From a virus: a DNA stretch of 21,082 nucleotides. The translations under genes were made by a program, and so were the position numbers. The notes below the pieces were generated by a model. That model made no database searches and was not told the DNA's origin. It saw only the letters and a program-made list of their open reading frames with translations. The DNA is taken from positions 1-21,082 of IMG/VR virus record IMGVR_UViG_3300033512_000347; one strand, given 5' to 3'. Positions 19,050 to 20,756 of the stretch are shown piece by piece (position 1 is the first letter of the stretch; each line of letters starts with the position of its first letter).

Positions 19050-19301
19050 TTAGTATATTTCGTATTGTATTTCTCCGTTGGTTTTATTTTCATCAATCAT
19101 AAGATAATGGAAATTATAATATTCTTTACAAGCTAATCCAACTCTTCCAACGTTTGATATTATAGTTACTTGTTTCCCTCTAATATCTTTTTCACCACTA
19201 TTAATTTTATAATGAGTATCAGTTTTACCATATTTACCCATAGGTATATCTTCTTTAATCCAAACTTTATCACCAACTTTATAATCATTCCTCTTCTTCA
19301 T
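19050..19301 (-). CDS. YEIY-tailed small protein, family B
   Basis: YKVGDKVWI; ends EIQYEIY; ATG at 19301. Confidence 0.85.
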   Translation of the reverse strand: MKKRNDYKVGDKVWIKEDIPMGKYGKTDTHYKINSGEKDIRGKQVTIISNVGRVGLACKEYYNFHYLMIDENKTNGEIQYEIY

Positions 19302-19608
19302 AACCAAATATTTTATTATTAATATCTCTTACTCTTGCAGCGAATTCATAATTTTCAACCTCTTCAGCATATCCAACCATTTCATCAAAGGCTAATCCCC
19401 ATTCATCCTCTAATATCGAAATAAATTTCATTAATGGATTAGTAGGAATTTCTAATTCAAATATATCTACTGTTTTTGTTGATTGAGTTTTATTAAAACA
19501 TTTTTCCATAATATCTAACGTTCGAATATAAATTTCCAAACGATTTTCATCATAGTAATCTTCTAATTCCTCTTCATTATTAAATTTTAGCTTTTTTAAT
19601 CTTCCCAT
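19285..19608 (-). CDS. Hypothetical protein with C-terminal UVR-like motif
   Basis: ENYEFAARVRD resembles the UvrB/UvrC coiled-coil motif; promoter core 19630-19642 upstream. Confidence 0.7.
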   Translation of the reverse strand: MGRLKKLKFNNEEELEDYYDENRLEIYIRTLDIMEKCFNKTQSTKTVDIFELEIPTNPLMKFISILEDEWGLAFDEMVGYAEEVENYEFAARVRDINNKIFGYEEEE

Positions 19609-19644
19609 TTAGTTTAGGTTTTTTGATTTGTAAATATACGAAAA

Positions 19645-20271
19645 TTATTTTGAATAATCTAATAAATTTCGTTTAATATCTCTATTAATTTTAGAGCATA
19701 ATGGTTGAAAGTTAGAGAAATGATTAAGTTTATAAACATCATCCCCACAGGTGGAACTTGATATAGGAATAATATGATCAAAATCCCAACCATAATTAAG
19801 TTCACCATTATATAATCCATGATTTTCCCAAGTCATCCATGATTCAAATTTAGATTCGATATATAATTTGAATTCTTCAAAAGTACAACCAATAATTTCT
19901 AATGTTCGTTTTGATTTAATTTCTTTCCCTTCAAGAATATTTTTAAAACCATAAACTAAATATGATTTAATTAATTTTCTAATTTTACACTCAGGAATAT
20001 TATTATATCTGTAGTTATCATAAATTCTTATTTTATCTTTATTTAATTCATTATATAATTTATTATATTTTGAAATCTTTTCTACATTATTTTCATTCCA
20101 AATTTTATTACTAAAAGTATGATATTCTATATTATCATAATAATATTTTTCACCGTGAATTTTTTTACAAACTTTACATTTACCACCAACACCCCCACTT
20201 CCTTTCTTATCTTTATGAAATTCGTCTAAATTTTTTTCTAATTTACAAGTATTGCATTTTTTAATTTCCAT
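19645..20271 (-). CDS. HNH-family endonuclease with N-terminal Zn ribbon (putative homing endonuclease; start revised to 20271)
   Basis: CxxC...CxxC, followed by MTWENHG...DHIIPIS...NFQPLC..IN. Confidence 0.8.
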   Translation of the reverse strand: MEIKKCNTCKLEKNLDEFHKDKKGSGGVGGKCKVCKKIHGEKYYYDNIEYHTFSNKIWNENNVEKISKYNKLYNELNKDKIRIYDNYRYNNIPECKIRKLIKSYLVYGFKNILEGKEIKSKRTLEIIGCTFEEFKLYIESKFESWMTWENHGLYNGELNYGWDFDHIIPISSSTCGDDVYKLNHFSNFQPLCSKINRDIKRNLLDYSK

Positions 20272-20282
20272 ATCAAAATAAA

Positions 20283-20366
20283 AGGAGAAATTAAGAAATG
20301 TATCTGGTCCATACAAATTCCTAAAATCTCCTATAAAATATCTTTATTAAGCAGGACCAGTGCTTA
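20283..20366 (-). ncRNA. Two-hairpin kissing-loop RNA element in the HNH gene leader
   Basis: The 7-nt loops at 20304-20310 and 20354-20360 are exact reverse complements. Confidence 0.7.
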
Positions 20367-20399
20367 TATGGATATAAATATGTAAGGAGAAAAGAAATA

Positions 20400-20756
20400 T
20401 TAACCTTTCTTTTTCTTTTTTAATGGTAATCTATCTTCTGGGTATAAAGAATAATGAAACTCTTCCAATTCTTTTTGGATAGTTTCCATTCTTAATTTAT
20501 CCTCTTTTGTTACTCTTGGTTTTCTTTCACCTTTTTTAGGTTCATATTTTTTCTCCAACAATTCTAATTCACGTAGTAATTTTTCAGAAATTTGGAATTG
20601 TGGATCTTCAAATTCAACACTAATGGGACCATTACTTTTTAAAGTATTCCATTTCCATGTCTCTTTTTCTCCCTTTATATCTTTAAATATTTGAGTATAT
20701 TCAATTAATGGAGTATCATTCTCGATTGGTCTTCCTCTACCTTTAATAGACTTCAT
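20400..20756 (-). CDS. Hypothetical basic protein (KGRGRP motif)
   Basis: AT-hook-like GRP near the N-terminus; the ATG is embedded in the upstream YEVY codons. Confidence 0.75.
   Translation of the reverse strand: MKSIKGRGRPIENDTPLIEYTQIFKDIKGEKETWKWNTLKSNGPISVEFEDPQFQISEKLLRELELLEKKYEPKKGERKPRVTKEDKLRMETIQKELEEFHYSLYPEDRLPLKKKKKG

Follow-up and report, generated by a model that had tools for sequence, protein, structure and literature searches.

What are the 128 nt that separate a 118-aa gene from the ATG of a nuclease gene in this phage genome, and why should they hold two hairpins whose loops can pair with each other? The window, that is, the whole stretch of 21,082 nucleotides analysed here, makes up the opening 21 kb of a virus record of 85 kb in IMG/VR (G000); it has 25-30% G+C, and its (-) strand carries nearly all ORFs. 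An earlier note on this DNA had placed in the gap, correctly in every coordinate, two hairpins with perfectly complementary 7-nt loops, and had read them as an RNA element in front of an HNH endonuclease. Here we show that a conserved sense-strand structure with a loop-loop contact lies between a promoter motif and the start codon, and that it is borne by the nuclease cassette itself. We consider it fairly probable (about 0.6) that a Flavobacterium-type myovirus carries here a mobile, free-standing homing-endonuclease cassette, with these 128 nt as its promoter and 5′ leader, and that the folded leader restrains the expression of the nuclease.

Leader, promoter motif and nuclease gene

The features of the locus are collected in Table 1. 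RNAfold recovered both hairpins (MFE -28.6 kcal/mol, z = -2.5), a stability that 3 of 200 shuffles matched. The leader measures ~95 nt. Its second hairpin reads AGGAGA..TTAGGAA..TGTAT[GGACCAG]ATACA..TTCTTAA..TCTCCT (20332-20283), followed in the window copy by TTTATTTTGAT and then by the ATG. The earlier note had remarked on GC-rich loops in very AT-rich DNA; the loops have 57-71% G+C, compared with ~25% in the surrounding DNA. Within the 21 kb, the loop 7-mer is found in only two places, on opposite strands, a count that is not significant by itself (0.6 expected; two or more in 11 of 100 shuffles). The evidence for the element from this single window is moderate, and the deciding evidence is that of the other copies.

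Table 1. Features of the nuclease cassette and its leader, in window positions.
Feature	Position	Strand	Basis or remark
Whole cassette (promoter, leader, HNH-type gene, 3′ spacer)	19609..20399	(-)	inserted between genes that are adjacent in relatives
Upstream gene, 118 aa	stop at 20400	(-)	borders the cassette
T/C-rich stretch	20383-20399	(-)	directly upstream of the promoter motif
Motif ATATTTATAT, read as late-type promoter	20372..20381	(-)	invariant in 7/7 copies
Hairpin 1, TAAGCA[CTGGTCC]TGCTTA; 6-bp stem, 7-nt loop CUGGUCC (20354-20360)	20348..20366	(-)	sequence, RNAfold
A/U-rich linker AUAAAGAUAUUUUAU, 15 nt	20333..20347	(-)	14-17 nt across copies
Hairpin 2, loop GGACCAG (20304-20310)	20283..20332	(-)	18 bp in segments of 6+7+5, two small internal loops
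Kissing pairing, 20354-20360 with 20304-20310	20304..20360	(-)	covariation, loop energies
U-rich tail UUUAUUUUGAU between hairpin 2 and AUG	20272..20282	(-)	8-11 nt in every copy; terminator-tail-like
Nuclease gene, 208 aa	19645..20271	(-)	ATG at 20271
Cassette 3′ spacer	19609..19644	(-)	promoter-like ATATTTACA, read from sequence

Several simpler accounts of these letters were set aside. The stem of hairpin 1 and the apical stem of hairpin 2 are unrelated in sequence and the complementarity is confined to the loops, so an inverted duplication, in which more than the loops should match, was rejected as its source. A 24-codon ORF from the ATG at 20312, within hairpin 2, was likewise rejected, as the other copies do not conserve it. 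The host lineage is likely to be Flavobacteriia; in F. johnsoniae, mRNA structure modulates initiation, and Shine-Dalgarno sequences play no part in it (PMC6847099, PMC7797042). It is therefore unlikely that the AGGAGA at the base of hairpin 2, which is paired and lies 55 nt from the AUG, acts as a Shine-Dalgarno sequence in a lineage inferred to ignore them (PMC7797042), and it is probably just stem. By eye, the nearly invariant AAUAAA of the linker is complementary to the UUUAUU of the tail 3′ of hairpin 2, with too little variation for covariation to speak.

The nuclease starts at the ATG and not at a TTG at 20316, the ATG position being conserved in all copies. The protein matches PHROG families phrog_1035 (endonuclease VII, E = 2.8e-18) and phrog_2255 (HNH endonuclease, E = 8.8e-05), and combines an N-terminal CxxC...CxxC finger with a C-terminal DH...N...N motif; C6, C9, C32, C35, D165, H166, N187, and N196 are invariant in 15 homologues. 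The Pfam HNH model is marginal (two of the 15 homologues matched, E = 0.0036), and NCBIfam and PDB sequence searches of the nuclease gave weak matches or none. The AlphaFold model has a low-confidence C-terminal domain, and Foldseek found no significant structural match to the model, only a weak one to the zinc finger of Hpy99I. The protein is therefore likely, though not firmly established, to be of HNH type (His-Me finger).

The motif upstream of the leader, which the earlier note had singled out as a possible promoter, appears to be just that. ATATTTATA is found 18 times on the coding strand of the 85-kb genome and twice on the other, and the 10-mer of the motif 12 times and never, respectively, mostly 13-27 nt before ATGs. 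Among the genes it precedes are the tail sheath gene (phrog_23, E = 3.7e-76), a baseplate-hub-like gene, and a third HNH gene that has no such leader. The nearest cultured relative, Flavobacterium phage immuto, infects Flavobacterium, has a tail sheath that is 48.6% identical, and carries the same motif in front of the gene for it. We therefore read ATATTTATAT as the late-type promoter motif of this phage group. Ordinary genes that bear the motif have short A-rich leaders, and a spacing of ~100 nt is found only at the two leader-bearing HNH genes of this genome. The third HNH gene (G000:C1:53629-54084, L109; 151 aa, phrog_2255 E = 6.6e-29) has the motif 13-17 nt upstream and no structured leader, which indicates that the leader is not obligatory for carrying such a nuclease. 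A Cys-rich 218-aa ORF on the same stretch (G000:C1:50473-51129, L109) is arranged in the same way, with the motif 13-17 nt upstream and without a structured leader.

Copies of the leader and the mobility of the cassette

Other copies were gathered by BLAST of the spacer against its own genome, by pattern scans of IMG/VR and metagenomes, and by a covariance model. Seven distinct copies are known: two in the 85-kb genome (the window copy and a second one, hereafter own copy 2), four in three related phages from IMG/VR (L004 and L091 in G002, a phage of 175 kb; L003 in G001; L006 in G003), and one on a 1.4-kb metagenome contig (L103). Own copy 2, at G000:26981-27099, is 72% identical to the window leader by BLAST and adjoins the ATG of a paralogous nuclease gene; its loops, CUUGCC and GGCAAG, differ in sequence from those of the window and keep their complementarity. 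Each of the seven stands right before the ATG of a gene from one and the same nuclease family, of zinc-finger/HNH type.

The loops vary together. Five distinct loop pairs were found (CUGGUCC/GGACCAG, CUUGCC/GGCAAG, AUGGUAC/GUACCAU, CUCGUCC/GGACGAG, and CUGGUAC/GUACCAG), and the one mismatch in the family lies in loop 1 of L003, which carries the AUGGUAC/GUACCAU pair. In the MAFFT alignment of the seven copies (A4), 95.9% of the cells of the kissing helix are paired, four of its seven pairs show two-sided change and none one-sided change, and no G-U pair occurs in it. Sliding the partners by one to three columns lowers the pairing to ~45%, and the values observed for the whole structure were reached by none of 500 shuffles, statistics that rest on ~5 independent compensated changes in seven sequences of one narrow phage clade. 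The cognate loops pair with energies of -5.7 to -11.3 kcal/mol and are always each other's best or tied best partner. The two leaders of the 85-kb genome are orthogonal, their cross-pairing amounting to only -0.5 and -2.1 kcal/mol. Thus, the pseudoknot-type contact that the earlier note had proposed upstream of an HNH-type gene is supported by covariation, and loop complementarity upstream of homologues, on which that note had staked its proposal, is kept in all seven members of the leader family.

The stems differ in how they vary. That of hairpin 1, 4-6 bp long across copies compared with 18 bp for hairpin 2, is different in every lineage and shows two-sided change in three of its six pairs, under loops of 6-7 nt. 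In hairpin 2, whose folding energy ranges from -17.6 to -22 kcal/mol, nine pairs are invariant and six show two-sided change, and the lower stem AGGAGA/UCUCCU belongs to what does not change. The G-U pair that the earlier note had taken as support for the (-) strand, which lies in hairpin 2, is indeed conserved (G-U in six of seven copies, A-U in one), whereas the strand discrimination over all stems is modest, with 92.6% of cells paired on the (-) strand and 90.2% on the (+) strand, and 10 G-U cells in stems. It is therefore mainly the direction in which the gene and the promoter motif point that assigns the element to the sense strand.

The family is narrow. A descriptor for kissing hairpins (two separate hairpins whose loops share at least six complementary bases) returned one match among 400 shuffled 220-nt upstream regions and one among the sequences upstream of 80 other HNH homologues in IMG/VR, and neither it nor covariance model R1 nor inspection by eye yielded a further member among those 80. 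The check that the earlier note had proposed, loop complementarity in front of homologous HNH genes, holds for all seven close copies, but no such leader was found at the 80 more distant homologues. The one descriptor match among them, L054, was rejected for its unconvincing fold; upstream of this distant homologue, at L054:1340-1450, a long-range helix of GGAGAGCCAUUU with AAAUGGCUUUUU encloses a stretch containing CUAUAUUUAUGG, in a sequence unrelated to the leader. No copy was found in Flavobacterium phage immuto (model R1) or in 45 related or HNH-bearing IMG/VR records (model R2). The metagenome scan returned eight stretches, of which L103 is the one true copy, and L096, from the IMG/VR pattern scan, is a chance match in coding sequence. 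L097 and L099 hold a hairpin with a similar base and no partner hairpin, and were not counted. At L097:3868-3990 and L099:3887-4009 (- strand), on contigs 367 kb and 207 kb long, a hairpin GGAGAG...CUCUCC with the palindromic loop UCCGGA comes after ATATTTATA and is itself followed by UUUUAUU; this hairpin could be a distant or degenerate relative, or a plain terminator.

The search of Rfam that the earlier note had suggested (Rfam 15, 4227 families) gave no match at gathering thresholds in the whole window, and a permissive scan of 20200-20450 gave as best match an unrelated lncRNA model (E-value 0.21; score 23 bits, threshold 60). A literature search for kissing loops together with homing endonucleases returned no relevant paper and no published description.

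The genes that flank the cassette in the window (20400-20756 and 19285-19608) have homologues that abut in G002 (67569-67910 and 67909-68232) and, across the terminal repeat, in G003; likewise, G002 and G001 have the two neighbours of own copy 2 side by side. In G002, the leader-bearing cassettes occupy other positions. Both cassettes of the 85-kb genome therefore sit at sites that are empty in relatives, and promoter, leader, and nuclease behave together as a mobile homing-endonuclease cassette. At the DNA level, the two leaders of the 85-kb genome share 72% identity, whereas the paralogous nucleases share 46% at the protein level. The second cassette (G000:C1:26356-27099; L002:876-1630, -) lies between hexapeptide-transferase-like and glycosyltransferase-like genes, and its HNH gene ends in an ATGA, where the stop codon overlaps the following gene's ATG. 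In the 3′ spacer of the window cassette, ATATTTACA is one mismatch from the late motif and lies 21 nt before the ATG of the next gene, so the cassette may supply a promoter to its downstream neighbour, like some T4 cassettes. At L003:3634-3648 (-), in phage G001, the leader is intact, but codon 3 of the nuclease ORF is TAA, compared with GAG in the close relative L006; L003 may be a decaying cassette.

How the leader could act

We infer the start of transcription, an effect on termination or translation, and the role of the kiss from the sequence, as follows. The late-type motif would drive an mRNA beginning at or just before hairpin 1. This leader RNA would fold into the short hairpin 1, an A/U linker of 14-17 nt, and the long hairpin 2, whose apical loops of 6-7 nt would kiss, and the folded leader would hold nuclease expression down. 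Some transcripts may be stopped at the U-tract after hairpin 2, and/or ribosomes may be kept off the start, in a host lineage that appears to pick its starts by lack of structure instead of Shine-Dalgarno pairing. The loop-loop pairing would lock a compact fold, and, given the unequal arms, it would perhaps form only with a free 5′ end. That the leader most likely limits expression follows from hairpin 2, which is terminator-like and ends 8-11 nt before the AUG. In all seven copies, its G+C-containing base UCUCCU is directly followed by UUUAUUUU or close variants. Hairpin 2 with its U-tract has the anatomy of an intrinsic terminator or attenuator, and equally that of a structure obstructing the ribosome; a simple terminator scan did not list it because its stem is interrupted. 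Regulation as such, which the earlier note had imagined as an attenuator, translation control, or a small RNA, is a putative function, the rationale of a toxic nuclease coming from the T4 precedent, in which homing-endonuclease genes are held down by late promoters and leader hairpins (PMC2988022).

There are points on which a restraining leader sits less easily. A strong terminator within an operon would be polar on downstream genes. The invariance of the lower stem of hairpin 2 suggests sequence recognition besides structure, which our preferred model leaves unexplained. In addition, an intramolecular kiss requires the linker to run up a hairpin of ~20 bp between arms of 6 and 18 bp, and the kiss may be intermolecular.

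A timing switch in the manner of T4, possible although we hold it to be rather unlikely, is not exclusive of the preferred reading: in read-through RNA, a P1 helix (20372-20366 with 20273-20267) would enclose both hairpins and bury the AUG, whereas late transcripts lacking the 5′ arm of P1 would be translated, the kiss forming only in them. Such logic is established for I-TevI, segB, and Aeh1 mobE (PMC2988022). RNAfold predicts a P1-like helix in the read-through RNAs of most copies, the AUG has an unpaired probability of 0.01-0.06 in five of the seven, and in six copies its accessibility rises (to 0.25-0.84) when the RNA is started 7 nt after the motif, own copy 2 staying at ~0.2. With 129 natural starts of the same genome serving as background, the P1 duplex is unusually strong in L091 (0/129), L103 (2.3%), and L003/L006 (3.9%), and the same P1 position is C-G in L091 and L103 and U-A in L003 and L006. 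In contrast, it is at background in the window copy, own copy 2, and L004, where 46-53% of controls are as good; moreover, its register varies between lineages, and its A/U-rich, semi-palindromic arms make chance pairing easy. This switch also presupposes a putative late start 3′ of the 5′ arm of P1. The same unequal arms (6 bp and 18 bp) that strain an intramolecular kiss would suit an RNA acting in trans, which we regard as unlikely: termination at hairpin 2 would free a small RNA of ~90 nt, or leaders would join loop 1 to loop 2 'hand in hand' like the phi29 packaging RNA, possibly with the nuclease protein. Mutually complementary, covarying loops within one RNA are the defining trait of pRNA, and the leader has two such loops; paralogous leaders within one genome carry orthogonal ones, and the invariant lower stem could bind a protein. 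Nevertheless, each leader is joined to a nuclease ORF that begins 8-11 nt further on, and no stand-alone copy was found in IMG/VR or the metagenomes; no Rfam family matches, pRNA included; the phage is a myovirus of ~160-175 kb, not phi29-like; and the 14-17 nt linker can extend to the apex of hairpin 2 as long as the 5′ end is free.

The shape of hairpin 2 also allows an account that we find quite improbable, in which it is a processing site (e.g., of the host RNase III) and not a terminator, its cleavage splitting off or reshaping the leader and thereby setting mRNA stability or translation. Hairpins of this shape, with about two helical turns and small symmetric internal loops, resemble the RNase III sites of phages T7 and lambda, and both the length and the lower stem of hairpin 2 are invariant; however, a processing site would need neither the conserved U-tract nor the conserved distance to the AUG. 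A DNA-level element is very improbable. Here, the nuclease would recognise the 7-bp loop words as inverted operator half-sites, as a cruciform, or as a site of recombination, and they would co-evolve with the specificity of the protein. An inverted repeat is indistinguishable from RNA complementarity, the kissing helix is free of G-U pairs, and there is a precedent in I-TevI, which represses its own late promoter through an operator resembling its homing site (PMC2988022). Yet the repeats sit exactly in hairpin loops, on stems that covary independently and include the 10 G-U cells, and the promoter motif lies upstream of the element, which does not overlap it. Neither empty target site in G002 contains the loop words, and an operator mimicking the homing site was therefore rejected. 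The orthogonality of paralogous loops also admits a doubtful proposal, namely a 'loop code' proper to each cassette, in which the kiss would be a switch or an intermolecular contact (terminated leaders pairing with full-length mRNAs, or a leader-nuclease particle) that doses or targets each nuclease apart from its paralogues. If true, this would be an RNA-based self-addressing not known for homing endonucleases.

Related systems and wider meaning

Control by a late promoter together with a leader is of a known kind, while the kissing-loop architecture and the setting in a Bacteroidota phage are new. The closest likeness is the leader control of T-even homing-endonuclease genes (I-TevI, I-TevII, I-TevIII, segB, and Aeh1 mobE; PMC2988022), which have a late promoter right before a mobile nuclease gene, a stable RNA structure before the start codon, and the same presumed purpose, restricting a nuclease able to cut the genome that carries it. 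In T4, however, a single hairpin buries the Shine-Dalgarno sequence and the late start lies inside it (PMC2988022), whereas here both hairpins are downstream of the motif and the host lineage probably ignores such sequences. Only some of our copies support burial of the AUG, and the covarying loop-loop pairing is undescribed for T4 in that account (PMC2988022). In seg43(25) of Aeromonas phage 25, a very stable hairpin likewise stands immediately upstream of the start without covering it, and in T4 mobE and segF, some transcripts (a reported ~30% for mobE) are stopped by a hairpin that lies near the 5′ end of the nuclease mRNA and bears a U-tract (PMC2988022). The terminators of mobE and segF differ in lying inside the coding region, and neither these two nor seg43(25) has a second, kissing hairpin.

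Outside the homing endonucleases, the pRNA of the phi29 family resembles the leader in that two loops of one RNA are mutually complementary and covary between phages. It is a stand-alone RNA of the packaging motor of small podoviruses, whose loops pair between molecules; in contrast, our element is joined to a nuclease ORF as its 5′ leader, in a genome that encodes a tail sheath and is thus that of a myovirus. Purine-riboswitch-type three-way junctions, with their L2-L3 kiss, also join neighbouring hairpins through their loops in a 5′ leader beside an expression platform, whereas the present leader has arms of 4-6 bp and 18 bp, a P1 that is not consistently supported, and no conserved junction core. 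The HEARO or omega RNA of IscB likewise lies immediately upstream of an HNH-domain gene. HEARO measures ~300 nt, and its partner protein (~400-500 aa) has RuvC and HNH domains, in contrast to the ~95-nt leader and the 208-aa zinc-finger/HNH protein described here. The absence of an Rfam match sets the leader apart from all three of these RNAs.

Homing endonucleases are selfish, and need enough expression to spread and too little to harm the phage. Well-studied systems of such control come only from T-even coliphages, and this element would be a different solution in phages of Bacteroidota, hosts whose ribosomes do without Shine-Dalgarno pairing: a portable promoter-plus-leader module with a tertiary loop-loop contact, travelling with the nuclease gene. 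The element is a candidate for a new Rfam RNA family. Small, sharply defined, and provided with natural compensatory variants, it would also be a convenient model for the effects of kissing loops on termination or initiation, and possibly an expression-limiting part for the genetics of Flavobacteria.

Elsewhere in the 85-kb genome, at G000:C1:28750-28790 and 79900-79935 (-), the ordinary intergenic order is hairpin, T-run, and late motif, that is, terminator and then promoter, which is the reverse of the order in the HNH leaders.
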